Shown piece by piece: positions 30,655 through 60,937 of a stretch of 64,000 nucleotides of DNA; position 1 is the stretch's first letter, and every line of letters begins with the position of its first letter. Position numbers and translations under genes: made by a program. Below the pieces are notes generated by a model, which did no database searches, was not told the DNA's origin, and saw nothing but the letters and a program-made list of their open reading frames with translations. The stretch is taken from sequence record NC_070980.1; one strand, given 5' to 3'. This DNA is from Escherichia phage vB_EcoP_SU7.

Positions 30655-30954
30655 CTAGATTAAATCATAATACTTAATAATATCAGAGAGTTTGAACTCT
30701 CGAATGTCGTTCTTGTCGTTGTCCCAAGCGGTCATTATCCAACAAGGTTTGCCCCCATTATGATAACGGGAAGAAGCAACTGAGGTTCGTAAAGGAATAA
30801 CGGAGCGGTCTGCAATCTCGCCTCTCCAATTACGATAGCTAAAGCGAAGAACTTGTTTCGTAGATACTTGATCATGTGTGTTTTCCTTATTCATAGATTC
30901 AAAGACTTCCTTCTCTTCAGGAGTCTCTAGATTTTTTAAATTCGCGTCTTGCAT
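30655..30954 (-). CDS. Hypothetical protein
   Basis: Track ORF 30655-31023 trimmed to internal Met (MQDANLK...) to limit overlap with the upstream HNH gene. Confidence 0.35.
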   Translation of the reverse strand: MQDANLKNLETPEEKEVFESMNKENTHDQVSTKQVLRFSYRNWRGEIADRSVIPLRTSVASSRYHNGGKPCWIMTAWDNDKNDIREFKLSDIIKYYDLI

Positions 30955-31321
30955 CGTTTTCCTCTTTAGTCTTAATCTTATGGCAAGACTCTTTACATAA
31001 GACTTGAAAACCATCTTTCTCAACTAAAGCCCTCTCGATGATTTCATCCCAAGTAGCTTCATGGTCCACTGGAACAATAGGCTCGATGTGGTCGACAGCC
31101 ACCTCTTTCAGAGGAGAGTCATTACCGCACATGGCACACTTGTAGTGCATTGCCAGCTTGCCAGTCTTAGGGTTGATTTTACGTTCTGTCTGAGCTTCTT
31201 TGAGAGCATCAAACATAGGCTTCCACTTTCTAGTCAGAGAACGAATCCCTGACTTAATGAAGGAGTTATAACGTGCTTCAGTCCACTGACCAGAGCATCT
31301 TGTCTTCTCAGCTTTCGCCAT
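30917..31321 (-). CDS. HNH endonuclease
   Basis: CAMCG...VDHIEPI...LCKESCHKIK HNH/Zn motif. Confidence 0.7.
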   Translation of the reverse strand: MAKAEKTRCSGQWTEARYNSFIKSGIRSLTRKWKPMFDALKEAQTERKINPKTGKLAMHYKCAMCGNDSPLKEVAVDHIEPIVPVDHEATWDEIIERALVEKDGFQVLCKESCHKIKTKEENDARREFKKSRDS

Positions 31322-31499
31322 AACCTACATCCATATCAGCGTCTTCCCAAATGCGTTTATTGACTCGGTGTGATTCTTTATCAGCACGAGGGATACGACC
31401 TGTGCGACGATCAAATGCTTGGTGCTTAATCTTTTGATCTTTACGAGATTCACGAGTAGAGGAGTTTTCATCATACGAACGATAGTCAAATTTACCCAT
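31308..31499 (-). CDS. Hypothetical small basic protein
   Basis: 63-aa ORF, no motif. Confidence 0.3.
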   Translation of the reverse strand: MGKFDYRSYDENSSTRESRKDQKIKHQAFDRRTGRIPRADKESHRVNKRIWEDADMDVGYGES

Positions 31500-31512
31500 T
31501 ATAATATCCTTA

Positions 31513-32355
31513 TTACCAAGTTTTATCTAACCATGACCAATCAAAGAGGTCACCTTCAGCTTGTCCAACGAAGAGCAATCGAGCATTTTCTAACATCTTA
31601 GCTTCTGCTTCTTCCTCGAACCTTTTATAGTATTCCATTCGTATAATATGATAAAGAGTCCACTTATCGAATACCTTCTCAATAAGTTTGATTGCAGCCT
31701 TACTACCAATGCCTTTACGACGCATTACTAGATTGCCACCCCACATCATTTCAACCTTCTCACCACATCCGGGAATGTTATCTGTGCTATCCCCGATCAG
31801 CATTTGGTAGAAGAAGTTCTGCCATGCTACTTCCTCTGATACATAATGAGGGGGTACTTCTTTCTGTCTCTCCCCGCAAGCCCAACGGTAATGCCATCCG
31901 GGGGTGATTAACAAATCTTTATCACGGGTGCAAATGATAGTGTTCTTATCACGTCTCTGTCTTTCAGCTAAGGCATCATCTGCCTCTCTCCCAAAAACTT
32001 CTACGTATTCGTAATTCTCTTTAATGTAGTCACTAACATTTTGCCAGTGGTGAGGTCTTTCTCCCGGTGGTCGATTAGCTTTATAGCCTTGCTGCTTAGC
32101 AATATCAAACCGAAAATTACCACCTTCGCTGAAGTAAAAGATTGTTTTCTCGCAACCAGACCTTGCAATGATTACATCTATTTTATGTTGAAGTCGTTCA
32201 ATCAAGAATCCATAATCAACTGGAACACGACCTGTGTCTAGAAAAGGATGCTCTTGTGTAAGAGCACCGACTTCATATCGCAGAACATCTCCGTCCACAA
32301 TTGCTACTTCAGGATAGATTACATCAGACATAGAGACCTCTCCGTGTCTCTTCAA
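31513..32355 (-). CDS. 5'-3' exonuclease / flap endonuclease (T7 gp6-like)
   Basis: GDSTDNIPGCGEK helix-hairpin-helix/metal-binding signature of the FEN family. Confidence 0.7.
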   Translation of the reverse strand: MKRHGEVSMSDVIYPEVAIVDGDVLRYEVGALTQEHPFLDTGRVPVDYGFLIERLQHKIDVIIARSGCEKTIFYFSEGGNFRFDIAKQQGYKANRPPGERPHHWQNVSDYIKENYEYVEVFGREADDALAERQRRDKNTIICTRDKDLLITPGWHYRWACGERQKEVPPHYVSEEVAWQNFFYQMLIGDSTDNIPGCGEKVEMMWGGNLVMRRKGIGSKAAIKLIEKVFDKWTLYHIIRMEYYKRFEEEAEAKMLENARLLFVGQAEGDLFDWSWLDKTW

Positions 32356-32920: not shown

Positions 32921-33570
32921 TATTGAATCATCCCTTGAAGATCTTCTTTATCAAAGTGCTTCTCTACTACCGCTTCATACAGATCACGATTCTCCGAATA
33001 ACGGCGATAGAAGGTTCCGTGTGAAATTCCCAGCTCTTGCTGGATGTGATCATGAGGTATACCGAGGAAGAGCATTGAGAACATACTTGCCATCTTGCGG
33101 TTTTCCATAATATCACTTAGGTCCTGGAAGAAGAAAAAGATTCTAGATTCCAAGAATGGGTCTCCAGTAGAATCATGCTTATCCATAGCAATCTCTAAAG
33201 GACTTTCCCATGAATTCATCTCGGGAGGTCTAAACATATCAGCCTCTGGAATAGAATAGATACGTCTGTCTCCAACTGTCTGACGATTAGAACGAATCGA
33301 CCAGATGATATTCTTCACACGATAAGTCATGTGTTCAATATCTTTTTCATCGGTAAGCAATAGTTCTTCTTGCTTTGCAAATACAAAACGCCAAGAGTTC
33401 AGTAACACTTCCTGAGCAACATCCTCTGCTTCGTGATAATCTTTAATGTCGTACATAAAATACTTATGCACAACTTTCCAATTCTCTCGATAGAATTCAT
33501 CGAAGGTTGGGTAGTACTTAATAGGTATGCCATGAATACGATAGCGTGTGGGTGTTGTCTTTTTCTTCAT
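32920..33570 (-). CDS. Phage-encoded sigma factor (ECF/sigma-70 family-like)
   Basis: Region-2-like [13 protein letters not shown] and C-terminal HTH-like segment [12 protein letters not shown]. Confidence 0.55.
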
Positions 33571-33594: not shown

Positions 33595-33819
33595 TTAAAC
33601 TACACAGAATAAATACATTGCTGTTTCAGGGGAAGGTATGTGGTCACTAGGATATCTAACCCTAATCCACTCATCATCTTCTGCTACATAATAAGCCCAA
33701 TAAGACCCATTTTCATTAATAAAGAACTTGAAGGTACAACCAAAGATTTGGTTATTGTGTTCCCATACTGCATGAAACTGAGTAACACCTTCTGGTATTG
33801 TAAGTTCCGCTCTGATCAT
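33595..33819 (-). CDS. Hypothetical protein
   Basis: 74-aa ORF, no motif. Confidence 0.35.
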   Translation of the reverse strand: MIRAELTIPEGVTQFHAVWEHNNQIFGCTFKFFINENGSYWAYYVAEDDEWIRVRYPSDHIPSPETAMYLFCVV

Positions 33820-34082
33820 TGTATTCCTCTCTCCTTTAGAGCTTTAAGCAAACCGTTGTGGTTAGCGGCACAGGTTGTATAAGTGTCCTGATACCACTCG
33901 AGTGTTGTTGCAAGTGCTACTCCCTGTCCACTCTGAAGTAAAGGGAGGTCTACATCACATTCAGCTTTTAGGTTTGTTGGTAAGGGCATTAGCTGCCTGC
34001 TGTTGTCGCTCGTTGAACAAGCCATCAAACTAGAAGCGAGAAAAATCACCAAACAACTCTTTTGCTTTTTCTTTGTAAGCAT
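33816..34082 (-). CDS. Putative o-spanin (outer-membrane lipoprotein)
   Basis: Signal peptide with lipobox-like LMAC, Pro-rich mature region, conserved Cys; start overlaps the 3' end of the HNH gene. Confidence 0.4.
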   Translation of the reverse strand: MLTKKKQKSCLVIFLASSLMACSTSDNSRQLMPLPTNLKAECDVDLPLLQSGQGVALATTLEWYQDTYTTCAANHNGLLKALKERGIQ

Positions 34083-34416
34083 TTTCTGCACCCTCTTGAG
34101 TGCTGTGATAACCAAGCCAAATTACTTTGTTTTGATATCCGATGCGAGCACTCCATTTGTTAATATCCGACCTGTACCCTACACCTTTTATTCCAGTTAA
34201 AGAGTTCTTTTGAACTATTTTGTTGGCATTATTAAGGACAGGTGTTGCTCTTCTTAGATTGCTCCAAGAATTATTAGATTTGTCTAAATCTTTATGGTCT
34301 ATTTGAAAATCAGGAATCTCTCCAGTTTTGATATACCAAGCAATTCTATGAGCTTTGTACTGTTTATATTGATAGGTAATCACTGTATAGCCATCTGTGG
34401 CTTTACAACCTGCCAC
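34030..34416 (-). CDS. HNH-AP2 homing endonuclease
   Basis: HNH_3-type motif HRIAWYIKTGEIPDFQIDHKDLDKSNNSWSNLR plus C-terminal AP2-like DNA-binding domain. Confidence 0.7.
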   Translation of the reverse strand: MAGCKATDGYTVITYQYKQYKAHRIAWYIKTGEIPDFQIDHKDLDKSNNSWSNLRRATPVLNNANKIVQKNSLTGIKGVGYRSDINKWSARIGYQNKVIWLGYHSTQEGAENAYKEKAKELFGDFSRF

Positions 34417-34511
34417 CTTTCCAGCGAATCTTGAATTCCACTGAGCGCTCTTATCCTCAGAATGTTTCCAGTAGAGAAGACCAGAAACCTCATCGTAAGA
34501 TAGATATTTAA

Positions 34512-34853
34512 CTAATTCTTTAATTTCAGTGCCTCCGCTGCTTGTTGCTGTCGTTCATTGAAAAGTCCTACATACTCATCACTAGCACACACATTGTAAA
34601 AAACTGGCTTAGTCTTTTCATAATGCATCTCTTTGTAAATAGTTTCCGTGTTCTTCTTCCAGTTAGATAAACCAGTCAGAACTTTCTGAGCCACTTCATC
34701 AGCAGCCTTAGCTCTCTCAACCTCAATCTCTTGCTGTTTCTTCTCATGGTCAAGAGCATTACTATTACTTCTGTATTGCTCAAACTTGACACCACCAAAG
34801 AAAATAATAGCTGTGAAAATAAGAAAGCCTATATTGTTTTGAAGCTTTTCCAT
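34512..34853 (-). CDS. Putative i-spanin (type II membrane protein with coiled coil)
   Basis: ATG 34853 with GGAG SD; N-terminal TM helix then charged coiled coil; C-terminal about 20 aa duplicated, recoded, at 33961-34020. Confidence 0.4.
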   Translation of the reverse strand: MEKLQNNIGFLIFTAIIFFGGVKFEQYRSNSNALDHEKKQQEIEVERAKAADEVAQKVLTGLSNWKKNTETIYKEMHYEKTKPVFYNVCASDEYVGLFNERQQQAAEALKLKN

Positions 34854-34865
34854 TTTAACTCCAAC

Positions 34866-34888
34866 GAAAAAAGCCACCCGAAGGTGGC
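34866..34888 (-). terminator. Rho-independent terminator (UUCG tetraloop)
   Basis: On the minus strand GCCACC-UUCG-GGUGGC followed by UUUUUU, just downstream of the SSB stop. Confidence 0.75.
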
Positions 34889-35653: not shown

Positions 35654-36068
35654 ATTAATATTTCCTTATATAAATTTAAGATTGTTGCTCTCTTTGAGCG
35701 GTTTGTATACTATATACATTACACTTATACAGATAAGGTTCTATTATACTATAACCTTTTTGGTAGTAGATAATGACAAGTAGTAATGTATATATGGTAT
35801 AGCTAGTAAAGCTATTGCAGGCTTGTATATTGGGCAATCATTGTAACCCTTGCAAGTACCGAAGGGCAGGAGACACCTGCGAGATAAAAATAGAGAATTA
35901 AGGAAATCCTTGATTTAGGTTGTAGGGACTCCTAGGGACTTTGATTCTCTATTTAAAAGAATATTAATTACTTACTACCTAAATAATTAACTAACTTACT
36001 TAAACCAAACTCAAGAATAATAGATAAAAAGATTATTCCTAAGAAAGCTAAAAAGTAAAGGATATAAG
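35654..36068. promoter_or_regulatory. Long AT-rich intergenic region (candidate promoter/origin region)
   Basis: 415 bp without ORFs upstream of SSB; direct repeat TAGGGACTCC-TAGGGACTTT around 35921-35940; TTGCAA palindrome. Confidence 0.4.
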
Positions 36069-36233
36069 TTACCATTCAAGTAAACCTTTAAAGTTAGTTT
36101 GTTCTACTATCCTCTGATAACGAAGATTAGAATCAGCTTGTTTCTTTAACATCTCATTATATTTATCTCTGATAGGGTCTTTATAAACTACAGGTTCTTT
36201 AAATAACGAGATCTTGTTCTTTTCTTCTTTCAT
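36069..36233 (-). CDS. Hypothetical small protein
   Basis: Track ORF trimmed to internal Met (MKEEKNK...). Confidence 0.3.
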   Translation of the reverse strand: MKEEKNKISLFKEPVVYKDPIRDKYNEMLKKQADSNLRYQRIVEQTNFKGLLEW

Positions 36234-36720
36234 CGAAAACCTTCCTAATCTCTTGCAGAGAAACAGCTTTATAATTAATTTGCTCCATTGATGTACAGAA
36301 ATATCTCCAATCATCAATTACATGATTATGGGTATGAGCATAAATATTAAACTTCCCTCTCATTTCATCAGTGTGAATAGGAATATGAGTTACCCAAAAC
36401 TCTTTATATTTATAATCACCAGAGATTCTACGGAAGACTTTCATCATATCAGGGAGAAGTTCTAACCTGTCATGGTTTCCTAAGACTAGATGCTTCTCTC
36501 CTTTTACTTCAGCGATGATATCAAGGGCATACTTTTCAAACACCCAATCACCGGTAAAGAAAGTTTTATCACGTTTAGTAACATGGTCAAACGCTGCTAA
36601 GATAGCTTTGTCGTGTTCTTCAATACTACTAAACCTCTTCCTAAAGCTACAGATGTTACGATGGCCTAGGTGACCATCACCTGCAAAATAAACTTCAGCC
36701 ATTCTCGTATGTGTCCTCAT
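36199..36720 (-). CDS. Calcineurin-like metallophosphoesterase
   Basis: Motifs GDGHLGH, LVLGNHD and HTHNH in order. Confidence 0.6.
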   Translation of the reverse strand: MRTHTRMAEVYFAGDGHLGHRNICSFRKRFSSIEEHDKAILAAFDHVTKRDKTFFTGDWVFEKYALDIIAEVKGEKHLVLGNHDRLELLPDMMKVFRRISGDYKYKEFWVTHIPIHTDEMRGKFNIYAHTHNHVIDDWRYFCTSMEQINYKAVSLQEIRKVFDERRKEQDLVI

Positions 36721-38838: not shown

Positions 38839-39150
38839 CTACTTCTCCACCACAAAGAGGTTAACTTCAATGAAAGTTTCGTATTGTGTTGACTCCTGCT
38901 TACGGGTGTAGTAGAAATGACGACCTTCTAATGCACCTCCGTACTGAGTGGCACATCTTTTAACCATCTCTTTTATCACATCTACAACTGATTCGCCTTT
39001 CCACGGACGTAACCCCTGAGTTGGGACTTTTGCTGTACAGGTTACTTGTGTGTAACCTACATCTTGTAGAGATATCTCAAGAATCAGCTTTGCCCAAGCA
39101 TCAAAATTAAGCTTGGGGTTATATTTAACTTCAGTTTTGATATCAATCAT
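38839..39150 (-). CDS. Hypothetical protein
   Basis: 103-aa ORF whose ATG overlaps the stop of the polymerase C-terminal segment (TAATG). Confidence 0.4.
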   Translation of the reverse strand: MIDIKTEVKYNPKLNFDAWAKLILEISLQDVGYTQVTCTAKVPTQGLRPWKGESVVDVIKEMVKRCATQYGGALEGRHFYYTRKQESTQYETFIEVNLFVVEK

Positions 39151-39302
39151 TAGTGAGTATGATTCCAGTTTAATCCAATCTTACAATCTGATGCAAGAGG
39201 ACATTCCATCTTGAGGTATTCCCCTGCTTTACGAACACATTCTTCAGTGAGGGTACGAAGTTTGTTAACATCATCACGATGTACAGTGAACTGACCTTCA
39301 TC
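39150..39302 (-). CDS. DNA polymerase A C-terminal segment (putative exon 2)
   Basis: Encodes DEGQFTVHRDDVNKL...KIGLNWNHTH*, matching the family A polymerase C-terminus (post-motif-C region and terminal NW..H). Under 60 aa, so absent from the ORF track. Confidence 0.6.
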   Translation of the reverse strand, partial: DEGQFTVHRDDVNKLRTLTEECVRKAGEYLKMECPLASDCKIGLNWNHTH

Positions 39303-39909
39303 CATTCAGTTATTCCCAAATTACTTCGGGTGTCGGACTATATCATAACAGCATAGCTAATTTGCTGTTGTTGGCGCTTCGAGGGTTTCCCTGTTAACCC
39401 CCTACTCCCTTAGGATAGTCTCTACACTTTCCACTTCCGAATCCATCTACAACCGATTCCGAAGCTCACACCAAACTTCTCTGCAAGATGTACACCAGAG
39501 CATTCTGTTTCTAGCCAATAAAGCCTTGCAGCTTCTTGTCTATCTCCATTTCTTCCAGTGTTTGATTCTATTGCATGTTCTGAACCTTCAAGCATTTCTA
39601 AGTGCTCAAGATTGGAACAAGCCCTATTCTTGCATTTGTGATTTATTTCATAACCATCAGGAATAGAACCAAAAGATTCTTCCCAAACATATCTATGATA
39701 CATGACCCATTTGCCATCTATTACTTTTCTGAAATAACCATCTTTGTTAAGTTTGTGTGAGATAGGGATGATACACCCTGTTTCGGTTGTTTCCAAAACA
39801 AGAGTTTTCTTAGCCATATCATCTCCTAATAGCTTAGCTCGGTATTGCCCCCAACTTAATGGTAGGGTTTCACCGAGTTCACCAACTTTTACATGCACAA
39901 TGAAAGTTT
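39303..39909 (-). mobile_element. Intron-like insertion (candidate group I intron) carrying an HNH gene, splitting polA at motif C
   Basis: Upstream segment ends ...ATG CAT (U at the 5' junction); insertion ends ...TGAATG (terminal G); joining gives ...IDMH|DEGQF, restoring an HDE motif C. Core intron structure not verified. Confidence 0.45.
39422..39817 (-). CDS. HNH homing endonuclease (within the polA insertion)
   Basis: ATG 39817 with AGGAG SD; motif YEINHKCKNRACSNLEHLE. Confidence 0.7.
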   Translation of the reverse strand: MAKKTLVLETTETGCIIPISHKLNKDGYFRKVIDGKWVMYHRYVWEESFGSIPDGYEINHKCKNRACSNLEHLEMLEGSEHAIESNTGRNGDRQEAARLYWLETECSGVHLAEKFGVSFGIGCRWIRKWKV

Positions 39910-41604
39910 ATGCATGTCAATAACCTTCGCACAACGAACACCATCCCGCTCAATCCATTTATTGAGGAATAGCATTGCATACTTCATAACAATCGCCCCA
40001 GCGCTCTGTAAGAGTGTATTTAAGGCTTTATGGACCATAACCTTTCCAGTTGCATCTCTTCTCATTGTAATACGACGTCCATCCACACCGTAGATATATC
40101 CACTTTGCGCTTTCTCTGTCATACGTTCAATAAGGATTGCAATACAAGGGTTCTCTGCTAAGAATCTTGCTCTCATGATAGCCCCTTCGTCAGAGCCACC
40201 ACCTACAATACTTCCTAACTTAGCGTCACCTGCCCCATAGTTAAAGGCATAGATAAACGTTTTAGCATTATCACGAGTAGGAAGGCCAGCAAGTTTTTGG
40301 TTATGTGAGTGAATATCTCCTTCTAAAAGAATATCTCTATACATAACAGCAGAAGCTAGACCACGTTCAGCTTCTCGTTTCTTAGCCGGGTTGTTTTCTC
40401 GCTCTGCTTCAGCGAGCATCTCACGACATTCTTTAATAAGGTAGTGAGCTAGCATCCTCAGCTCAAGACCAGAGCCATCGTAACCTAAGAAGATTTCACG
40501 ACCAGCAGGAACATAGAACTTATAGGCACCTACAGGTTTGTCTTTCTTGCCCGGTTTTCCCACTTCGTAGATAATGTTAGTACCCTTTCGTACGTAACAC
40601 CCATCAGGGATATGGTTGGTAATGATGAAAGGATGGTTATGACTATCGTCTGAGGAATAGTCAGATTGAAAAAGACTGCGGCACTCGTGACCAAACAAAC
40701 CGCGAGAAGGAATATTAACAACAATGCGATGTTTAAAACGAAATGTCGGAGTAGCGCAGCTATTAGCTTCGGCGGACAACTTACCATCTTTACGTTCCTT
40801 GTCGATAAGCCCGCTAATCAAACCTAGCCTGTGAGCCGCTACAACGCGTCTCTTAAGCAAACTTCCTACACCCCCTAGCTCACCCCCAAGCCCCTCTTCA
40901 AGAGTCTCCTCAAGGTTTGTAGGGGCTGTGGGCCACTTGTTTGATGTAGCCAAAGCTTTTTTGATTTCATCAAAGGTTACAGGTTTCTTCCTATTCGGAT
41001 TAAGACCTAAACCACTGACGTAGGCTTTCATGTAGTTGACAGTGTGATAACGGAAATGTTTATCCAAAAATCTTCGGATATCAGCATCTATCATCTCCGC
41101 TGTCTGTTTCTCTTTAGCATTACCTCGAATCCAAGCAGAATACCATGCAGAGTATGTACCATACTTCTTCATAGCTCTACGGATTTCAAATGTATTCCAA
41201 GGTTTCTTAGAATAATTCCACTCTGGAGGTATGAAGCCTTCGTCCATCAAGGCTTCTTTGATACGTGCATCTTTCGATGGGTCGAAGTCTACATACTCAA
41301 CGCAAGTAAACGCCCCACCGATATCTTCTCTTTTAAGACCAACTCTGTCACAATAGAGCTGAGGCCACTTCTGTAAAGCACCTGACTTCTTAAAAGGTTT
41401 CGAATAAGTTGAACCATCCACCCGCATTTTGGGGAGGAGAGGAATCAGTTCTTTATCAATATTGACAATAATCTCTTTGAGAAGGTGAACAAACCACCGA
41501 GCGTTTCTTCTGTTGAAGTTGACTCCATGCTTCGCTTGTTTTGAGATTATATCAGCGACTGTCATCTCCGTTATGAAAGGTAACTTATCAGGGTTATCCA
41601 TCAC
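39889..41604 (-). CDS. DNA polymerase A, polymerase domain (T7 gp5-like; putative exon 1)
   Basis: Motif B region RDNAKTFIYAFNYGAGDAKLG and downstream LLQSAGAIVMKYAM; ORF stops 5 codons after DMH, immediately before motif C. Confidence 0.85.
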   Translation of the reverse strand: MMDNPDKLPFITEMTVADIISKQAKHGVNFNRRNARWFVHLLKEIIVNIDKELIPLLPKMRVDGSTYSKPFKKSGALQKWPQLYCDRVGLKREDIGGAFTCVEYVDFDPSKDARIKEALMDEGFIPPEWNYSKKPWNTFEIRRAMKKYGTYSAWYSAWIRGNAKEKQTAEMIDADIRRFLDKHFRYHTVNYMKAYVSGLGLNPNRKKPVTFDEIKKALATSNKWPTAPTNLEETLEEGLGGELGGVGSLLKRRVVAAHRLGLISGLIDKERKDGKLSAEANSCATPTFRFKHRIVVNIPSRGLFGHECRSLFQSDYSSDDSHNHPFIITNHIPDGCYVRKGTNIIYEVGKPGKKDKPVGAYKFYVPAGREIFLGYDGSGLELRMLAHYLIKECREMLAEAERENNPAKKREAERGLASAVMYRDILLEGDIHSHNQKLAGLPTRDNAKTFIYAFNYGAGDAKLGSIVGGGSDEGAIMRARFLAENPCIAILIERMTEKAQSGYIYGVDGRRITMRRDATGKVMVHKALNTLLQSAGAIVMKYAMLFLNKWIERDGVRCAKVIDMHKLSLCM

Positions 41605-42541: not shown

Positions 42542-42859
42542 TCAACTTGAGCTTAAAGCTCCTTTGCGACCGCCTGCTGATTTTCCAGCACGATCTCCAC
42601 TTTTGCCGCCGTTCGAGCGATTTCGAGAGACTGATTCAACACGTAAGTTACTTGACGCATTAGAACCTCCCGACTTGATTGATCGTTTGTGTCCAACATC
42701 TTTACCTCGGACAGCAGCTTTTCCATCGCGCTTTTCAACGATGCGACGTGCACGGTGGCGCTGAGCATCTCCGCTCTTGCTCCCAATTCCCGTTTCACCG
42801 CGCTTGATCGCAGTCCTTCTTTCTTGAGCATAGTCTCTTTTTCCTACATGATCTGCCAT
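42542..42859 (-). CDS. Hypothetical basic Gly/Ser/Lys/Arg-rich protein
   Basis: 105-aa low-complexity basic ORF; an alternative helical ORF (42553-42831) occupies the same DNA in another frame, so the true frame is unresolved. Confidence 0.3.
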   Translation of the reverse strand: MADHVGKRDYAQERRTAIKRGETGIGSKSGDAQRHRARRIVEKRDGKAAVRGKDVGHKRSIKSGGSNASSNLRVESVSRNRSNGGKSGDRAGKSAGGRKGALSSS

Positions 42860-43188
42860 TAGATTTCTCCTGATTCTCTTTGGTTAAAGGTGTGGATGGC
42901 GTGGCAATTAGCACACAATATCCTGCACTTCCTCATCTCTTCTTTTATTTGAGATAAAGATCTGGTGTGCCCTTTGGAGAGTTCGAATGACTTAGTTAAT
43001 GGATTTAAATGATCAAACTGAAGAGCAGATGCGTGGCCTTTAAAACCACATTCAGAGCACCCGTAGAATGTTTTAACTCTACGAATAAAAGCTAGTTGCC
43101 TAAACCTTCTTCTCTCATTGTCTGCTTTTCTCTTATCTCTATTTCCTGGGTCGGCCCATCTACACGAGTCATTGCAAAACCTCTGCAT
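42859..43188 (-). CDS. HNH endonuclease
   Basis: CSECGF...QFDHLNP...LCANCH motif. Confidence 0.65.
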   Translation of the reverse strand: MQRFCNDSCRWADPGNRDKRKADNERRRFRQLAFIRRVKTFYGCSECGFKGHASALQFDHLNPLTKSFELSKGHTRSLSQIKEEMRKCRILCANCHAIHTFNQRESGEI

Positions 43189-43421
43189 TATATACTTCGT
43201 TACAAATGGTACCTTACAGGTTTCACATTCCTTGTGGTATGTTGCTATTTTGACCCCCTACTCAGTGTAAACAAAACCTTCTTTATCGGCTGACTCTTTT
43301 GCAAAAGTTTTTGCATCTTCAAGAGTGTCAAAAGTCTCAGTGATATAAACTTCTCGAGGCCCGTTTTTGTATACTACAGAAAACTTACCACCCTTAAGTT
43401 CTATTGGTTTCACAACAGTAC

Positions 43422-44162
43422 TCATTGAGACCCCTTCTCCATTGCTTTAACAATCGCCTTACAGAAACCAGAACGAACAATGTCATCTGATTCACCATCT
43501 ACAATCTCAGCGAACTCATACAGATCATGTTCATCAATAAAGTTAGTAGCCCAAGTAAGACCACTCTCACGACCACGCATATCATGCTGGTTAGTATCAC
43601 CCATGCAGAACAGCTGAGAGGTTTCTCCCAATCGGGTCATGATTGAGAAGGCTTCATCCTTAGTTGTGTTCTGGAACTCATCTACGATAACAATAGCATC
43701 ATTGAAAGAACGACCACGGAGATATTCCAGAGGTACGAACTCAATGTTACTGTTACCGAGCTGGCATTCATAGAACCCCTTACCATATCGCTGAGTAATA
43801 ACATCAATGATGGGCATCAGGTAAGGTTCAAACTTCTCACGCATTCCTCCCGGAAGTAACCCAAGAGAGTTGCCCATGCCAACTGAAGGTCGACTCAGAA
43901 TGATCTTCTGAATCTTACCGCTCTTCAGTGCATCAATAACTGTGGAAGTGATTACAAAGGTCTTACCACAGCCCGCAGGAGCGTCTGTGAACACAACTTG
44001 TTTAGTCTTAATAGCATTGAGTAGCTCAGACTGAAACTGGTTCTGAGGGACTACAGGCTTTGCTAAAACCACCTCTTCATACTCTCGCTTACCCTTATGA
44101 GTAACAAGTGCTTCCCGACGAAGGTCTTTCCGTGATTCTTTCCGTGATTGACGACGACTCAT
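43422..44162 (-). CDS. phoH: PhoH-like ATPase
   Basis: Walker A VVFTDAPAGCGKTF and Walker B AIVIVDEFQN. Confidence 0.8.
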   Translation of the reverse strand: MSRRQSRKESRKDLRREALVTHKGKREYEEVVLAKPVVPQNQFQSELLNAIKTKQVVFTDAPAGCGKTFVITSTVIDALKSGKIQKIILSRPSVGMGNSLGLLPGGMREKFEPYLMPIIDVITQRYGKGFYECQLGNSNIEFVPLEYLRGRSFNDAIVIVDEFQNTTKDEAFSIMTRLGETSQLFCMGDTNQHDMRGRESGLTWATNFIDEHDLYEFAEIVDGESDDIVRSGFCKAIVKAMEKGSQ

Positions 44163-44344
44163 TTACGCTCTCCAATTTCTTCGTAATGACACTCAGTAGT
44201 TAAGCAATCTTTACAGATTGCTGTATAAACCCTGACGTTAGTAAATCGTTTGTTCTTCCCTTTGGTTGGAGAGCCTTTAGCAAGCTCTCTGATAACCTTG
44301 TTACTTAAATGAAGGTTTGTTCCTTCACATCTAGAGCACTTCAT
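44159..44344 (-). CDS. Hypothetical small Zn-ribbon protein
   Basis: CSRC...CKDC pairs. Confidence 0.35.
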   Translation of the reverse strand: MKCSRCEGTNLHLSNKVIRELAKGSPTKGKNKRFTNVRVYTAICKDCLTTECHYEEIGERK

Positions 44345-44660
44345 GGTTCATGTCTTTATGAATCCTGTAAACAGCTGTCGCCATACAAGCAACAGCCTCG
44401 TTGTGTGGGAGATGCATTCCTGTAGAACCATCCCAATCTTTGAACTCAGCGTCAAAGACTCCGGTAGGCTCTGGATACAGAGCTTGCAGCTCCACTAGAT
44501 CATTAGCAACTTGTTGCCATTTATCATCAGACCAGATAGGGTCATCCAACCAGTAATACAAATAGGAATGGATGATCAATTGCCTTCTGTGCCGATTTAT
44601 TACTTCAGCGGGACTTATCTCACTTCCATTTGAAGTCCTAAATGTATTACTGTCAATCAT
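44331..44660 (-). CDS. Small protein resembling the N-terminal Ia domain of NAD-dependent DNA ligase
   Basis: LIIHSYLYYWLDDPIWSDDKWQQVANDLVELQALYPEP parallels the LigA N-terminal H.YLY..D.P.I.D..YD.L..EL...PE pattern; only 109 aa, no adenylation domain. Confidence 0.35.
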   Translation of the reverse strand: MIDSNTFRTSNGSEISPAEVINRHRRQLIIHSYLYYWLDDPIWSDDKWQQVANDLVELQALYPEPTGVFDAEFKDWDGSTGMHLPHNEAVACMATAVYRIHKDMNHEVL

Positions 44661-44842
44661 TTCACAACCTTAAATTTGAATGTTGTTGGGTGATAATAGT
44701 GCAACCTGTTAATGGTGTGCTTTGTTTCAAGGTATAACCTGCAAGAGTGACACATGACATGAGTCAAACCGGTTACAGGATTAGGTTTAAAGTTGGCGAC
44801 AGTCTTCTCTTTCTTACAGAAGCTACAGACTTTCTTTTCCAT
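44657..44842 (-). CDS. Hypothetical Zn-finger protein
   Basis: CSFCKK...CHSCR motif; start set at internal Met. Confidence 0.35.
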   Translation of the reverse strand: MEKKVCSFCKKEKTVANFKPNPVTGLTHVMCHSCRLYLETKHTINRLHYYHPTTFKFKVVK

Positions 44843-45056
44843 CTTTTCTCCAGTGGTCAACGAATTGCTGAAACACTTTATGGTCGAAGGTGAAACCGCG
44901 AGCAATCCCACACTCTACGAAAGTAGAAGGCATATAATCTACATCACCTTCAGATGTATGACCATAGATTTGAATAAGCTTCTTAATCTTATCCTTCTCT
45001 CTTCGAGGAAGCATTCTAAATGCCTCCTGAATATCTGTAATATGTTTTATCTTCAT
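44823..45056 (-). CDS. Hypothetical protein
   Basis: 77-aa ORF. Confidence 0.3.
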   Translation of the reverse strand: MKIKHITDIQEAFRMLPRREKDKIKKLIQIYGHTSEGDVDYMPSTFVECGIARGFTFDHKVFQQFVDHWRKDGKESL

Positions 45057-45202
45057 AAGAAATTCCTGCTAATCCTCTGAGTTGTGGGAACAGCAATATT
45101 CACATACTCCACAACAAGGGCAGATTTCTACACTTGGGTCATATGCATCATCAACTGTCATCCCACACTTGGTGCAGAACACGTCATCATCTTCTTCCAA
45201 TA

Positions 45203-45850
45203 TTAACTCTCCAAAGTTTTCTTCAGGGCTGCCCACGAGATTGGGTAGAGTTTAGCCATCTCTTCGTCTAGAGATTGGGCAAACACTCGAACTTCATATT
45301 GAGCGTGAGATGAGAGTCGCTGACGACACAACTCAAACCAGCCATACAAAGAACCAGTCCAGTACCAAGTAGTTATCATACCTTGAGGCAAAACAAATCT
45401 AGCCTGTTCCGGAGCAATAAATTTAATCAATTCATCATAACTAGCAAGAGATGCTTCATACGCAGAGTTAAACAAAGCCAAAGCTTTTGCCTCCTCTTCC
45501 CCTTCAAGAAGCGCTCCAGAACCAGAGTGTAAATCATCTGGACGAGAGAAAATTTCTTTAGGTATGAAAATATCCACTGCTCCGTCTTTGTATCTACGAC
45601 TCATCTCATTCCAAGAGAATCCAACTTGATGTTTTTGTAGCTGTCGTGCGATTGCTATCGGGGCTTCACACCGGAAGCTTGCTTGTGGGTGACGAAAAGG
45701 GCTTACATGGCGTTCTCGAGCTAAGAAGTTAATAAGCCGAGTATCATTTTCTTTCAGCTCCTCCCTTTCTACTCCCATAGTTACACGAGCGGCATTTACC
45801 ACAGTAAGGTCTGATCCGAAGTTATCAATTAGTGAAGCTTTGATTGTCAT
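45203..45850 (-). CDS. thyX: Flavin-dependent thymidylate synthase (ThyX-like)
   Basis: ThyX-like ...FRHPQASFRCEAPIAIARQLQKHQVGFSWNEMSRRY; the usual RHR triad appears as KHQ here, but the alignment is by eye. Confidence 0.7.
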   Translation of the reverse strand: MTIKASLIDNFGSDLTVVNAARVTMGVEREELKENDTRLINFLARERHVSPFRHPQASFRCEAPIAIARQLQKHQVGFSWNEMSRRYKDGAVDIFIPKEIFSRPDDLHSGSGALLEGEEEAKALALFNSAYEASLASYDELIKFIAPEQARFVLPQGMITTWYWTGSLYGWFELCRQRLSSHAQYEVRVFAQSLDEEMAKLYPISWAALKKTLES

Positions 45851-46316
45851 TTATATAAATCTCCTTGACTTTATTATATTCCCTAGAGGCCTCTTCTACG
45901 GTTGAGAAGAGTCCTATATGCTTAGATTTAAATACAGCCCGATAAGCAATAGAACCACTTTTCCTTTTATGAACAGTTACTCCAATTACTCCAGTGGATA
46001 AGTTATTACTCTGTGCTACCCTATTAAGACTGTTTCCTGCTTTAGTAGTCCCTCTAAGATTCTCTCTTTTGTTGTTCAACCTGTTGCGGTCCAAGTGGTC
46101 TACCTCTTCAGGAAGCGAACCAGTGTCCCACCAGTAAGCAAGACGGTGAGCGTAATACTTAACACCTTTATAGATGATTCTCAAATACCCATTGGTATTT
46201 ACAGAACCAGCTATAGATCCTTTGTGTCCTTTTCCATAAGTTTTAACCCATCGGAAATCTCCAGTCAAAGGGTCGTAATCAAGAGCTTCTTTTATTGATA
46301 GGTCAATGTCATTCAT
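45825..46316 (-). CDS. HNH-AP2 homing endonuclease
   Basis: HNH_3 motif YAHRLAYWW...VDHLDRNRLNNKRENLR plus AP2-like C-terminal domain; overlaps the thyX start. Confidence 0.7.
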   Translation of the reverse strand: MNDIDLSIKEALDYDPLTGDFRWVKTYGKGHKGSIAGSVNTNGYLRIIYKGVKYYAHRLAYWWDTGSLPEEVDHLDRNRLNNKRENLRGTTKAGNSLNRVAQSNNLSTGVIGVTVHKRKSGSIAYRAVFKSKHIGLFSTVEEASREYNKVKEIYINDNQSFTN

Positions 46317-46331
46317 CCGTGAACTTCCTTA

Positions 46332-46607
46332 TTACTTTTTGTTCAGAGCTGTATCCAAAAAGGCTTTCAGGTTTGCTTCAGTTTGCATACCGGACAAGCT
46401 GTAATGAGCACCACTGTTCTTATCAGGGATGACAAAGGCTGGGATACTGCGAACACCATATTCAATGGCTCGCTCTCGACCATCACCTTCGGTGATATTT
46501 ACTTCTTCAACTTCTACGTTGTAATCATCTACAACCTTCTTAAACACAGGAGCCATAGCTGCACAAGGTGCACATGAATTACTATAAAACTTAATCACTT
46601 TACTCAT
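46332..46607 (-). CDS. Thioredoxin/glutaredoxin-fold protein
   Basis: ATG 46607; active-site SCAPC (CxxC) near the N-terminus, about 91 aa. Confidence 0.6.
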   Translation of the reverse strand: MSKVIKFYSNSCAPCAAMAPVFKKVVDDYNVEVEEVNITEGDGRERAIEYGVRSIPAFVIPDKNSGAHYSLSGMQTEANLKAFLDTALNKK

Positions 46608-49150: not shown

Positions 49151-50634
49151 GAGTTTCTGTTTCCTTGTACAGATGATGCCAAATTATTAATCATATTACG
49201 AGCTGTTTCACGAGATAGTGTAACACCTGCTAGGTTGTTGTGAAGCTCACCAGATAGCTCACGAGCTGCTGCTCGTAGTTCTGCACCAAGTGCAGTGTCA
49301 GAGTGAGCTAGACCATTACGACGACCAACAGGTCGAGGAGCTTCGTTAGCGTCATTAGCTAATGATGCAAAACCAATATGAGCAGCTTCACGAGCCGCTA
49401 TAGCTGATACTCGATCTTCTGTAGGGGTTGGCAAATCACCAACTTCTACACGTTCAATATCACTAGCACGTAGACCCTGAACAACAGAGCTTACTGTTTC
49501 CCATGAACGACGAGAACGCTGCAAATCATCCATTGACGGAGATGGAATAGGACGAGCAGTTCCTCCTTGGACATGCCATGTACGAGTATCCATTCCAGAA
49601 GAGTGTGCACTACCAAAACTACCAGTGAAAGTATCACGAGGTCTTTCATGAGGTTGTACGTTATACCCTACAACACCCCCTCGAACAGTTCGAGAAGTTT
49701 CTTCATTAAAAGCTTGAAGATCTCGTCTGTTAGTTCCCGGAGTCCAAGGTCGTGTAATTGCTTCAGCACCTATAGTGGTTAATCCACTAGACCATTCTGT
49801 CTGTAGGTTAACTTCCTCGTCCAGATAACTACGACCCCTTTCCTGAGGAATGTTTAATGTAGTTTCCATCATCTTCAGGGTATAATGACGACGCTGATTC
49901 TGATATAAATTTACACCAGCCATAGGCCCAACTAAATCACTGATCAGATGAACTTCTGGTTCACCAAAAGCTCCCATTGCAAGGTGCATGTACTCAGTAG
50001 AACTGCTGTAAACTGCAACTGTTGCTTCAGGCCACTTTTTGTGGACATACTTCATGTCACGACTTGTCACCACAGGGATATCATTAGTATATGCCATTGC
50101 AAACATACCTTCGTTCGACACATACATATCATCGAGAGTCATAAACCCTTGACAAATCATAGGGAAGCGACCGCTCAGAGTATCCATATCCAGAGGGAGG
50201 TTAATCATCATCTGAATCTTCACTTCGTCAATCTCCACTTCCAAAATCTCTTGGAAAGTGAAAAGTGCTTCAGCGTAGGTTGTTCCACTGATAGGCTGAA
50301 CTAGTCGAGATGTAACTTGAAGCCCCTTACTCTCTGTCCAAGACAAGAAGTTGTCAAGGAACAGTGCAGCATTACTTACGTTAGCAGGGCTGTTTTCCTG
50401 ACGAGTGTTCCAACGGAATCCTCCTTGAACTAGGAAGATATCAACATCATTCGGAGTTCGATTTTGGAAGAACGTATCACGGATAGCACCACCTGCAATG
50501 ACAGGATAGATACCATCAGGGACTACGTTATCTCTGATCAGATTGCGAATCAGATCAAGCCCTACGCTGAGGGCTTCTCCTTCTTGAAGGTTTAATTCAG
50601 ACAATGGAATCTTAATCATTTCTACATTTTCCAA
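49147..50634 (-). CDS. Putative Pol-beta superfamily nucleotidyltransferase
   Basis: IAGGAIRD...(13 aa)...DVDIFL fits the hG[GS]...DxD minimal nucleotidyltransferase pattern (CCA-adding-like head); C-terminal about 150 aa low-complexity Ser/Arg/Ala-rich. Confidence 0.4.
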
Positions 50635-53614: not shown

Positions 53615-53680
53615 TATATTACCTTTTAGTGTTTCAGTTAAATTCGAACTAGCCTCCTCTTTCGAAGAGGCTAAAGCAAA

Positions 53681-59028: not shown

Positions 59029-59651
59029 AATGATTCCACCAACTCTACATTATATGATGACAGGTCTGAAGAAATATGCTTGAACTTCTCCAGAAGGTTT
59101 AAAGATTGACGACCATTGTCGCCATAACCAGCTTCAAGAAGCACGTTTCCAACGTAAGCTCCTTTGTAATAAACTTTTCCATCGACAGGATTGATATAGA
59201 TGAAACGAGTAACCAACCCTTCAAACTCTGGATTAAACAGGTTGTACACCAAATCACCCGGAATCGAACGTCCGAGAGAAGGTGGAGTACCACGAAGTTT
59301 ATTCCCCATCAATCCTTTAGCTCGCTGACGAACAGGGTTGATATGGGTCCAGCTCACCATGTTATTACCATGCTGAAGGTATCCTACATCTGGAGACTCC
59401 AGAATGAGGCTGTGATCAAACACTGGGATATTACTAACAATCTGACGCTCAAACTGACCTTCGGAGTTTTTAGTCCAGCGTTCCGCCTCAAACACTAAAG
59501 ACATTTCAGCGTCGTGTGAGTAGTCGTCGATATCAAAGTTACCTTGCTGACGAACATCAAGCACATATAGAGGGAGGTTTTTACCATCAGGTGATCGCTG
59601 AGCAATCCATGTTCCACAATAATAGTGTTGAAAATCTCTTAACAAGCTCAC
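59025..59651 (-). CDS. Hypothetical protein (within the ligase cluster)
   Basis: 208-aa ORF coupled to the flanking ligase genes. Confidence 0.4.
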   Translation of the reverse strand: MSLLRDFQHYYCGTWIAQRSPDGKNLPLYVLDVRQQGNFDIDDYSHDAEMSLVFEAERWTKNSEGQFERQIVSNIPVFDHSLILESPDVGYLQHGNNMVSWTHINPVRQRAKGLMGNKLRGTPPSLGRSIPGDLVYNLFNPEFEGLVTRFIYINPVDGKVYYKGAYVGNVLLEAGYGDNGRQSLNLLEKFKHISSDLSSYNVELVESL

Positions 59652-59660
59652 AATATCACC

Positions 59661-60470
59661 TTATACAATCTGGAGTTTAGAGGAGAATTTATCCGCTTCT
59701 TTAACATCGTTACTGTTGATGATGTTGTGAAGCTTTTCAATTGGAAGGCGAGAGTGAAGTGACATCAATACTTCCATATCACAGCCTTGAACAACCTTAT
59801 CAACTTGCTCATAAACAAACTTGCGGGTTGACTTCTCGCCAATCCAGAAGTTAGAAAGAGAACGATATTCAATACCGTAATCTTTGTAGCGAATGGCAGA
59901 AGCCTTTCCGTATAACTCTTTACGACGAGTATCTTTATCCATGATCACAGCTGGCAAGGACAGGAAGTAATCACACAACACACCTAACATCATTTGAGTC
60001 TGACGACTAATTTCCAGCGTACCAGTGACGCCAAGGTGAACATGACCACCAGCAGTACGCAGACCTTTGTCTGTCGCTACTGGAGATGGGTTTTTCTGAC
60101 CAGTGAAGGCGTTGAAATCAGGAGTACAACCAAATACAAAGGCTGACGGATGGAAAGATTCCATCTCTTCTGAAGTGAACACATGAGAGCTAATCCCAAG
60201 TGCTGCCTCCATGCCACGTTCATTGAGAACTTTGTTAGTCAGATCAATACCACGCTGAATGTTATCATTAAACGCTTCAAACCCTTTCTGTGGGTTAATA
60301 TCGAACTCGGCCAGAACGTTGTCTTCTTGAAGACGAACATCAGGGGCCAGATCAATTTTGTTGTCTTTAGAGCAGCCCAGCTTACCAGCCACAGAGGTGA
60401 TAATACCAGAAGCAGTACGAACAAACATTTCCGGATCCGACCCTATTAAGAATTTACGTTTAGTAGTCAT
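59661..60470 (-). CDS. Second amidoligase-like / carboxylate-amine ligase protein
   Basis: IGSDPEMFV (acidic ligase-type N-terminal motif) and AGGHVHLGV motif; divergent paralogue-like. Confidence 0.4.
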   Translation of the reverse strand: MTTKRKFLIGSDPEMFVRTASGIITSVAGKLGCSKDNKIDLAPDVRLQEDNVLAEFDINPQKGFEAFNDNIQRGIDLTNKVLNERGMEAALGISSHVFTSEEMESFHPSAFVFGCTPDFNAFTGQKNPSPVATDKGLRTAGGHVHLGVTGTLEISRQTQMMLGVLCDYFLSLPAVIMDKDTRRKELYGKASAIRYKDYGIEYRSLSNFWIGEKSTRKFVYEQVDKVVQGCDMEVLMSLHSRLPIEKLHNIINSNDVKEADKFSSKLQIV

Positions 60471-60937
60471 GCTTTAGTCCAACCTTTATGAGATAGATAG
60501 TTTTTAAATCTGCCACTGTGCACAGCGCCCATGTGGCCTTGATGTAAGTCGTTGCTTCTACAGAAGTCTTTAAGATTGTATATTGTTACAACCTCGCCAT
60601 CTGGAGATCTAAACTTCCAAAATCTAGCATTCCCTTTCACAGCGTTTTCTTCACTGGTCAGAAGTTGGAAATTACTTGGGTGGTTATTAAGTTTATCGCC
60701 ATCGATGTGATCAACAGTCATACCATCCGGAATAGGCCCAATAAACAATTCATACATAAGTCTATGTAATAAAAAGTTCCTTGTTATCTTTTCAGGAGCC
60801 TGAACTGTTGTAAACTTAAGATAACCATCTTTATCAGGAAACAGTTTCCTCTGTTTCCCTGTTCTTGCATGGAATATACTACCGTCTTCGAACACCAAGA
60901 AGGTAGCAACTCCGACTACTAACTCCCTAAATTCCAT
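60467..60937 (-). CDS. HNH endonuclease (inserted within the ligase cluster)
   Basis: VDHIDGDKLNNHPSNFQLLTSEENAVKGN HNH_3 motif. Confidence 0.65.
   Translation of the reverse strand: MEFRELVVGVATFLVFEDGSIFHARTGKQRKLFPDKDGYLKFTTVQAPEKITRNFLLHRLMYELFIGPIPDGMTVDHIDGDKLNNHPSNFQLLTSEENAVKGNARFWKFRSPDGEVVTIYNLKDFCRSNDLHQGHMGAVHSGRFKNYLSHKGWTKA

Follow-up and report, generated by a model that had tools for sequence, protein, structure and literature searches.

The window, that is, the whole analysed stretch of 64,000 nucleotides (~64 kb) of Escherichia phage vB_EcoP_SU7 (NC_070980.1), represents a phiEco32-like E. coli podophage (Gordonclarkvirinae) and contains six open reading frames (ORFs) of the HNH endonuclease type, several of which interrupt or adjoin conserved genes. 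The structural genes are on the plus strand, up to ~30.4 kb, and the minus strand carries the early and middle genes, between 64 and ~30.6 kb. The HNH ORFs, at 30917-31321, 34030-34416, 39422-39817, 42859-43188, 45825-46316, and 60467-60937, are all on the minus strand, at the coordinates given by an earlier sequence-only reading of this DNA. A megablast search with 30-55 kb of the window returned 98 phage records, nearly all of them Escherichia phages of the Gordonclarkvirinae (genera Kuravirus and Suseptimavirus), with PAS59 (94%) as the best match, followed by Bas86, Bas87, HC-25922, EK010, and ECBP2. Base-by-base comparison covered seven relatives (Bas86, PAS59, HC-25922, EK010, ECBP2, ES17, and 1-6af), among which ES17 and 1-6af are Kuravirus phages and belong to a genus other than that of the window, and six further short loci were retrieved for two special questions, the relatives of the intron and the carriers of the cassettes described below.

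Six HNH genes and their distribution among relatives

Five of the six ORFs match Pfam HNH_3 or HNH above the curated cutoffs, and all six match PHROG HNH families with E-values from 2e-37 to 2e-48, except for 60467-60937 at 4e-23. A lack of HNH catalytic residues had been raised as a possibility; the motif DH...N...N or DH...CxxCH is present in all six translations, read by eye and from the spans of the profile hits rather than from a residue-by-residue profile alignment. A six-frame phmmer search with 14 HNH queries (those of the window and eight from relatives) found no seventh HNH gene in the window, and PHROG checks of the window's other unassigned ORFs found no other endonuclease families. 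A tRNA scan of the window was negative, and the whole window had no Rfam match at gathering thresholds. Two of the proteins had been proposed to carry AP2 domains, of which one has a match below the cutoff (34030-34416; 28.7 bits against 33.3, E = 2e-6), and the other, 45825-46316, has none at E <= 5 and resembles the 34030-34416 protein itself (phmmer E = 4e-18). The load of six, previously called unusually high, is real and stands at the top of the ordinary subfamily range of one to six, without being an outlier; the matching ~44-kb region holds six HNH-like ORFs in PAS59, five to six in ES17, five each in Bas86 and EK010, four each in ECBP2 and 1-6af, and one in HC-25922. The sequence-only reading also placed HNH genes within polA, within the overlap of the i-spanin and o-spanin genes, over the thyX start, and near phoH, and each of these positions was confirmed: polA is rejoined once the insert is removed, the thyX overlap is 26 nt, and the phoH neighbour lies downstream with a 55-amino acid ORF in between. 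The fifth placement, between two amidoligase genes, was mistaken, as this HNH gene is flanked by a COOH.NH2 ligase gene on one side and by a conserved gene without assigned function (phrog_13102) on the other, and the Amidoligase_2 gene is found two genes further downstream.

The gene at 30917-31321 (minus strand) encodes a 134-amino acid protein with the motif CxxC...DH...CxxCH and matches phrog_3106 (E = 2e-37), with a Pfam HNH score of 16.2 bits, under the cutoff of 21.4. It is kept at the same position in seven of seven relatives, and its divergence is the same as that of the backbone. Given this shared place, which extends to the relatives from the other genus, its distribution is not that of a mobile homing endonuclease. 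Uniform conservation at identical positions among relatives, which the sequence-only reading had held up against its own proposal of six homing endonucleases, thus applies to this core gene and is false for the other five, which are mobile by distribution. The core gene also has weak similarity to a terminase-small-subunit PHROG, and the PAS59 record labels its homolog terminase small subunit.

Each of the other five HNH elements is found in a minority of relatives and is cleanly missing from the others at the identical point, in line with the endonuclease traffic proposed earlier, and presence/absence polymorphism at a fixed site was seen for the polA, spanin, phoH, thyX, and ligase elements alike. 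The polA insert is shared with ECBP2, PAS59, 1-6af, 1-6bf, FH3, N1203-2Af.1, and PE006; the spanin-site element, among 94 matching records, with PAS59, Bas86, and Bas87, together with diverged alleles in EK010, E20-1, and KM01; the ligase-site element, among 25 matching records, only with Bas86, SDYTW1, PE006, and Bas89; and the phoH-site element with PH444, 1-6af, 1-6bf, FH3, ES17, and PGN6866, together with a diverged copy in Bas86. At the thyX site, the relatives have one of three unrelated HNH alleles, each paired with its own thyX N-terminus, or none.

HC-25922 is a near-isogenic genome with empty sites. Its sliding identity profile is ~100% over 34.8-42.8 and 46.4-63.8 kb of the window, and it possesses the core HNH gene only, with neither the polA intron nor the ligase cassette. 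The empty-site sequences in HC-25922 are GACATGCATGATGAAGG at polA, TTCCTTATTGGTTCTGACCCTGAA at the ligase gene, and GATGAGTATGTCAGCTTGTTCAACGAG at the spanin genes. At most one single-nucleotide polymorphism (SNP) separates the two genomes within ~440 nt of the polA or the ligase insert: the SNPs nearest the polA intron are at +9 nt (in exon 2) and then ~500 and 625 nt away, and those nearest the ligase cassette are ~440-450 nt away on both sides. The polA insert is 96-98% identical to that of ECBP2, and the ligase insert is 99-100% identical to that of Bas86. Since both are absent from a genome that is otherwise ~100% identical, their gain or loss, as judged from these alignments, is very recent and left the backbone unchanged.

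A further insertion hot spot, empty in the window, lies at ~53628-53635, where HC-25922 and ECBP2 have an insert of ~620 bp with a 138-amino acid ORF (ECBP2_0076) and EK010 has an HNH gene (loci L003 31886-32509 and L004 33156-33692).

The polA intron and the spanin and ligase cassettes

The polA gene consists of exon 1 (39910..41604, minus strand; 565 codons ending in GAC AUG CAU, with a DNA_pol_A match) and exon 2 (39150..39302, minus strand; 50 codons plus stop, starting GAU GAA GG), which are separated by a 607-nt insert (39303..39909, minus strand), a clean indel relative to Bas86, HC-25922, and EK010. Within the insert lies the HNH ORF (39422..39817, minus strand; 131 amino acids, HNH_3 46.7 bits, phrog_6254 E = 2e-43). 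Exact removal of the insert gives a 615-amino acid polymerase in which VIDMH is followed directly by DEGQF, the His-Asp-Glu of family A motif C, and the last ~60 residues of the rejoined protein, as printed, match the uninterrupted Bas86 protein. The 5' exon ends in a U paired to G in P1, and the insert ends in GAAUG (omega-G); P1 (ACAUGCAU/GUGCAUGU) is paired at 8/8 positions with a terminal U.G, and P10 (CUUUCAUU/GAUGAAGG), which adjoins P1, is likewise paired at 8/8. Both flanks of the HNH ORF match the Rfam family RF00028 with 26.3 bits (E = 1e-4) and 14.3 bits (E = 0.5), against a gathering score of 50; these matches arose only with permissive settings on short stretches, and the default Rfam filters gave none. 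The covariance-model score is probably reduced by the 396-nt ORF that the intron contains.

Homologs of the intron HNH protein occur at the gene 5 (DNA polymerase) position of T7-like phages, with 55-63% identity over the full length, and in the polymerase of Aeromonas phage MQM1, where a 'putative intron' ORF is 52% identical; the HNH motif is conserved in all eight intron-ORF homologs, and a PDB sequence search with the protein gave no meaningful match. The introns of K1F, Sekstaphage-1, PC127, and MQM1 interrupt the same codon boundary, between GCAU and GAUGA, with the same R and S elements and the same ORF placement. The common R element is GUAGAGACUAUCC, which holds the stop codon of the ORF, the S element is GAUAUAGUCCGA, and the 131-amino acid ORF begins in the P6a hairpin. 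The elements P1, P10, P3-P9, P7.1/P7.2, R/S, the GUA linker, and omega-G were assigned in eight intron copies, and all helices pair. The linker GGA-GUA-GGG between P7.1 and P7.2 is visible in all copies, and there is no P2. Compensatory changes occur in P1, P3, P4, P6, P8, P9, and P10 across three lineages (Kuravirus-group, T7-like, and MQM1), and the intron guide sequence co-varies with the differing exon sequences. These counts come from helix checks on each sequence, as column-wise covariation on the MAFFT alignment was dropped after P7.2-P3'-P8 proved to be mis-registered between lineages, and the rows for P5 in MQM1 and P7.1 in K1F and MQM1, whose 3-nt strands were mislocated by the string search, carry no weight. 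In a comparison with PAS59, conservation is 96% in the RNA core and 76% in the ORF.

Two small hairpins accompany the intron ORF. At 39818-39840 (minus strand; intron ~70-98), an AGGAG Shine-Dalgarno sequence sits in a hairpin loop with the HNH AUG in the 3' strand (AGCUAU/AUGGCU), and an equivalent hairpin is present in the T7-like copies; T4 I-TevI is reported to be translationally throttled in a comparable manner. The last ~60 nt of the ORF (39420-39480, minus strand) form a 10-bp hairpin, CUUCGGAAUC...GAUUCGGAAG, with one compensatory change from C-G to U-A in PAS59 and 1-6af in which both substitutions are synonymous, which suggests that the 3' end of the ORF doubles as intron structure. 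Directly after polA exon 2, at 38839-39150 (minus strand), the window has a 103-amino acid ORF (phrog_35057) in common with HC-25922 and ECBP2, and an unrelated ORF of ~63 amino acids takes this position in Bas86, PAS59, and EK010, a cassette-like allelic replacement without an endonuclease gene.

The polymerase introns of PhiI and W31 are located at Pol I site 881, and the hallmarks of their IA2 class are P7.1 and P7.2 joined by G-U-A, the absence of P2, and an ORF that extends from P6a to P7 (PMC3428280, from which the site was taken without retrieval of the PhiI and W31 sequences themselves). All of these hallmarks, including the site, are seen in the window intron. It shares with the introns of PhiI, W31 (I-TslI), and K1F gene 5.3 the position between His and Asp of motif C, which is Pol I site 881 (PMC3428280), and with the T7-like gene 5 introns the R and S elements, the missing P2, the GUA joint of P7.1 and P7.2, and a 131-amino acid ORF, 55-63% identical, that starts in the P6a hairpin and ends with UAG inside R. 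It differs from them in its host gene, the polymerase of another phage family, with exons reading VIDMH and DEGQF here and AWVH and DEIQV there; the P5 loop is longer and P7.2 shorter, and the sequences of P3, P8, and P9 differ but are compensated. On this comparative evidence, the polA insert is classed as a group IA2 intron of the self-splicing type, homologous to the K1F family, and polA is not regarded as broken; the gene would be intact at the messenger RNA level, provided that the intron is removed by splicing, as reported for related introns. The GenBank records of ECBP2, PAS59, and 1-6af annotate a split polymerase and no intron.

The spanin-site cassette (34023..34569, minus strand) is the non-native DNA between two native junctions and is absent from HC-25922, ECBP2, and ~85 other records. 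The empty-site o-spanin, MKRLSQFFTMCVLAMSMSAC followed by STRDNS, lies within the i-spanin 3' end, in the +1 frame, and the insertion point is between the o-spanin signal-peptide codons and the lipobox Cys, ~20 codons before the end of the i-spanin gene. In the window, the last ~19 codons (34512-34569) of the i-spanin gene (Rz-like, phrog_1152; 34512..34877, minus strand) are a recoded tail supplied by the cassette, VGLFNERQQQAAEALKLKN plus stop against the native VSLFNERQQQAVSALTNKPKN plus stop, in which nine of the first 11 codons are changed, eight of them synonymously. The recoding puts a stop in the old o-spanin frame, where the former start (34604-34621) now reads MKRLSQFFTMCVLVMSM plus stop. 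The o-spanin (33816..34082, minus strand), whose mature part matches phrog_2425, would instead be initiated within the cassette: a new signal peptide, MLTKKKQKSCLVIFLASSLMAC (34017-34082), is encoded behind GAGGG in the second frame of the HNH 3' end and leads directly into the native lipobox Cys and mature o-spanin, so that the predicted protein begins with MLTKKKQKSCLVIFLASSLMAC followed by S (signal peptides were judged by eye). The arrangement in Bas86 is the same. The EK010 allele is ~25% diverged, and because it keeps both an alternative i-spanin tail and a second-frame signal peptide (KKK...LLAFSLSAC), the comparison argues for selection on both reading frames of the cassette. Continuation of the i-spanin frame past its stop into the HNH frame was ruled out by three-frame translation.

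The HNH ORF of the spanin cassette (34030..34524, minus strand; HNH_3 51.8 bits, with an AP2-like part) has its first canonical start, a GTG, at 34416 and a candidate AUU start at 34524 behind GGAGG, and the EK010 allele has GAGGG and, 7 nt later, AUC. Upstream of the GTG, the ORF differs from Bas86 by seven synonymous and four non-synonymous codon differences, compared with 23 and 13 in the rest of the gene, a pattern that suggests that this upstream region evolves as coding sequence.

The ligase-site cassette (60432..60939, minus strand) is composed of 2 nt, the HNH ORF (60467-60937), and a recoded ligase start (60432-60470). Genomes with an empty site show an overlap between the ligase start and the stop codon of the gene before it (AATGACTAA). 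Of the native ligase gene, the first 10 codons persist in the window as a remnant (60940..60969, minus strand; ATGACTAAGCGTGCTTTCCTTATTGGTTCT) that overlaps the stop of the upstream gene (60962-61912), and the COOH.NH2 ligase type 2 gene itself (59661..60470, minus strand; PF14395, phrog_3815) is full length without splicing and starts with MTTKRKFLIGSDPE, its new ATG sharing the sequence ATGA with the HNH stop. The synonymous recoding here affects six ligase codons in a row, from CTT ATT GGT TCT GAC CCT to TTA ATA GGG TCG GAT CCG, and past them the identity to HC-25922 returns to 100%. The insert was analysed flank by flank, as the MAFFT gap across it was misplaced. In PE006, which has a Kuravirus backbone, the junctions are identical to those of the window, and since the remnant is PE006's own backbone allele and the recoded start is that of the window, the rewritten ligase start belongs, on this comparison, to the mobile unit. 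The window's remnant, too, agrees with its local backbone allele. The design recurs in Bas89, at 80% identity.

Recombinant tracts at the phoH and thyX sites

The proposal that the genome is a mosaic was upheld at informative sites, which show an ES17-like tract at ~42.78-45.36 kb followed by a tract of a third lineage to ~46.38 kb. The first, of Kuravirus type (42782..45356), includes the phoH-site HNH gene, a 55-amino acid ORF, phoH (43422-44162), and four small ORFs, and is 93-99% identical to the Kuravirus lineage (ES17, 1-6af, phiEco32, and SU10), with 94-99% for ES17 and 1-6af, and 66-84% identical to the backbone relatives. On the left, the tract breaks somewhere from 42709 to 42782, at 77-150 nt past the HNH stop; on the right, it breaks at 45356-45363, inside thyX. 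The third-lineage tract (45363..46380) comprises the 5' two-thirds of thyX and the thyX-site HNH gene and is 84-92% identical to Bas86, PAS59, and O18-011, against 66-77% or no alignment with HC-25922, EK010, and ECBP2. The thyX-site HNH_3 ORF (45825..46316, minus strand; 163 amino acids, 43.5 bits) overlaps the thyX start (thyX 45203-45850) by the 26 nt mentioned above and ends ~25-65 nt from the outer edge of the tract. A cassette with a recoded start could not be delimited at this site, as the entire thyX allele is diverged. The two HNH genes stand next to the outer edges of two adjoining tracts, a layout that is suggestive only, with two tracts and no statistics. The gene boundaries that had been expected to differ from those of relatives do so for the starts of the ligase, o-spanin, and thyX genes and for the end of the i-spanin gene, each in comparison with empty-site relatives; with this, the earlier interpretation of traffic and mosaicism holds, and endonuclease activity is inferred from the comparisons.

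The phoH-site HNH ORF (42859..43248, minus strand) has an ATG at 43188 that gives 109 amino acids, a Pfam HNH score of 21.9 bits against the cutoff of 21.4, and a phrog_2255 match (E = 5e-27), and a conserved CxxC element lies upstream of this ATG, behind a candidate AUA start at 43248. The AUU of the spanin-site ORF and the AUA of the phoH-site ORF are each preceded, at 5-7 nt, by a strong Shine-Dalgarno sequence, and low-level near-cognate initiation at both is plausible from this arrangement. The ORFs at 39422, 45825, and 60467 start in the ordinary way and are as long as their homologs. The 55-amino acid ORF between phoH and the HNH gene (43258-43425, minus strand) is unannotated and matched neither Pfam nor PHROG families; it begins with an ATG that shares ATGA with the phoH stop, and at this position, ES17 has a second tandem HNH_3-like ORF (L006 20733-21203).

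Mosaic patches were also found elsewhere in the window. A phosphoesterase region at 36000-36700 is 96-100% identical to ES17, 1-6af, and HC-25922 and 72-90% identical to Bas86 and EK010. In the nucleotidyltransferase gene at 49147-50634, the segment 49200-50300 is 99-100% identical to PAS59 and 70-92% identical to the other relatives, an intragenic recombination tract, and the BASEL paper (PMC11990801) connects this gene with a possible pathway of DNA modification.

Weighing of the explanations and comparison with known systems

Taken together, the early/middle arm of the window is best explained as containing a single fixed HNH gene along with five mobile homing-endonuclease elements, which fall into three architectures; to this reading, a probability of roughly 80% is assigned. 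By analogy with the T7-like relatives, the intron HNH protein would nick or cut an intron-less polA during co-infection, and repair would copy the intron in, after which its splicing would restore the 615-amino acid polymerase. The ligase cassette sits after codon 10 and provides a new recoded start directly past the HNH stop, and the spanin cassette brings a rewritten i-spanin tail upstream of its HNH gene and a lipoprotein signal peptide for the o-spanin in a second frame. The carrier and empty alleles differ at the presumed targets, as the intron interrupts the polA site and the ligase and i-spanin codons are recoded, and we infer that the interrupted or recoded bases are the nuclease recognition sites. 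The recoding would then both keep the host proteins intact and destroy the presumed recognition sequence, leaving the carrier immune to its own nuclease, and co-conversion of flanking DNA during homing could account for the imported tracts beside the phoH- and thyX-site HNH genes. A more general proposition, on which our judgement is evenly divided, is that phage homing cassettes can invade essential coding sequence, even two overlapping lysis genes, unspliced, by means of recoded replacement gene ends, one of the repairs being in a second frame, with the recoding serving as self-immunity and the nuclease possibly throttled by AUU or AUA starts behind a strong Shine-Dalgarno sequence.

Several points weigh against the homing interpretation. 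The imported tracts could be the result of ordinary recombination with the HNH genes as passengers, and the cross-genus patch at 36.0-36.7 kb, which has no adjoining HNH gene, advises caution in crediting all mosaicism to endonucleases. Flanking co-conversion is nearly nil at polA (the one SNP at +9 nt) and at the ligase site (none past the recoded segment). The spanin- and phoH-site ORFs have no canonical start upstream of their conserved N-terminal sequence and may be in early decay. At the intron, the Rfam score remains below the gathering threshold (26.3 against 50 bits), and covariation was scored on our own helix assignments, in which the 3-bp helices P5, P6, and P7.1 are weak when taken alone. 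Single-base comparison covers just the seven relatives.

The same observations bear on the alternatives. At both the spanin and the ligase site, covariance searches gave no group I or II signal even at E <= 10. The sequence outside the HNH ORF amounts to only 2 nt before it and ~30 nt after it, with no room for a ribozyme core. The ligase gene has its own ATG over the HNH stop, followed in frame by a recoded version of the same 10-13 codons; the i-spanin gene likewise possesses its own recoded tail, in frame, with a stop; and in diverged carriers, both recoded copies are still conserved as coding sequence. Such kept duplicates would be pointless if the inserts were spliced out. The notion that these two inserts are self-splicing introns, or are otherwise spliced, with the remnant as exon 1, is rejected on these grounds as very improbable, notwithstanding that the records of Bas86 (L001 14106-14998 and 38298-39606) and Bas89 (L013 720-2031) annotate the spanin and ligase genes as joined over the HNH ORFs and that the ligase-site insert has a final G and follows a putative exon 1 with a final T, the two pieces giving the native protein if joined. 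The spanin and ligase genes probably undergo no splicing in Bas86 and Bas89, the inserts being free-standing cassettes beside complete host genes with recoded duplicates. A different view, in which the HNH genes are mostly inactive passenger relics and the mosaic reflects ordinary homologous recombination between co-infecting Gordonclarkvirinae, could draw on the two ORFs without canonical starts, the phoH-site homolog left unannotated in ES17 and 1-6af, the patches without HNH genes at 36.0-36.7 and 49.2-50.3 kb, and the near absence of flanking co-conversion at polA and the ligase gene. It is doubtful nonetheless, as the catalytic motifs are intact in five of five, the upstream region of the spanin HNH gene has coding-type substitutions, and cassettes 96-100% identical to one another sit in backbones otherwise ~100% identical to an empty-site genome; ligase cassette junctions that are identical in two genera fit precise site-specific spread better than random recombination.

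It has also to be asked whether the HNH genes are retained because they are useful to the phage, in marker exclusion, degradation of host or competitor DNA, or packaging, and are not purely selfish. Intron endonucleases such as I-HmuI give flanking markers a competitive advantage, and the core gene, fixed in every relative examined and with its terminase-small-subunit similarity and label, would suit such a role; the other five are absent from most relatives, including the near-isogenic HC-25922, and are therefore dispensable. A general benefit is considered improbable. Hardly credible, finally, is the suggestion that the mosaic tracts are assembly chimeras from a sample of several related phages: reading frames are intact over every breakpoint, the thyX-HNH block has no database donor closer than ~88%, comparable mosaicism exists among independently sequenced isolates, and the polA and ligase inserts are single clean insertions, even if the breakpoints do lie inside conserved genes, where assemblers can switch templates.

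Mobile elements with one or another of these properties have been described in several systems. The free-standing endonucleases of T4-like phages achieve carrier immunity through target-site polymorphism. In Aeromonas phage Aeh1, mobE lies in nrdA ('genes in pieces'), a free-standing HNH gene inside essential coding sequence as in the window; nrdA is split into two polypeptides that reassemble, whereas the host genes of the window stay whole, with the cassette supplying the missing end. The seg and mob genes of T4-like phages, known for intronless homing, are small GIY-YIG or HNH genes beside conserved genes and are sporadic among relatives, as are the window elements (PMC2988022), and these free-standing endonuclease genes often overlap neighbouring ORFs and have poor translation initiation regions (PMC2988022). 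They are intergenic in that review, which does not mention duplication, in contrast to the two window cassettes, which are intra-coding and have recoded gene ends. In fungal mitochondria, free-standing endonuclease genes are accompanied by a partly duplicated neighbour gene (atp6, atp9, or cox1), and they share with the window cassettes the duplicated piece of the adjacent host gene and a leftover pseudogene remnant (PMC7487136); that case is organellar and concerns the LAGLIDADG and GIY-YIG families, and no report was found of systematic synonymous recoding or of two overlapping genes being repaired together, one of the repairs lying in a second frame of the endonuclease gene. In Vibrio phage ICP1, nuclease genes border the tracts that related phages exchange (PMC10448857), comparable to the window HNH genes at 77-150 nt and ~25-65 nt from the outer tract breakpoints, with the difference that ICP1 belongs to another phage family and has mostly other nuclease families, and that here one genome and two tracts are considered without statistics.

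Within the Gordonclarkvirinae, 'homing endonuclease insertions' are mentioned in passing in the BASEL paper (PMC11990801) and are annotated in several GenBank records. A limited search, which is weak evidence of absence, found no paper on a polymerase intron or on repair-carrying cassettes in this group, and another limited one found no description of recoded repair-carrying phage cassettes or of second-frame repair in an endonuclease gene. The polA intron extends a described intron family to a new host family, and the cassette architecture may merit a short note.

For annotation, the polymerase of ECBP2, PAS59, 1-6af, and the window should be treated as a single intron-containing gene rather than two fragments, and 30917-31321 should not be counted as a mobile element. 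If the cassette interpretation is true, several 'join' annotations in GenBank records of this phage group would be wrong, and the cassettes would be a phage counterpart of the fungal mitochondrial gene-end duplications. The window and HC-25922 form a near-isogenic pair, with five elements against none, in which homing, marker exclusion, and co-conversion are directly testable, and the pair belongs to a therapeutically relevant group of E. coli phages, for the engineering of which the cassette boundaries would mark insertion-tolerant sites. A polymerase intron common to T7-like phages and Gordonclarkvirinae gives evidence of the exchange of mobile elements between unrelated coliphage families, and repair-carrying cassettes would mean that a selfish gene can settle in overlapping essential genes without a ribozyme or an intein.

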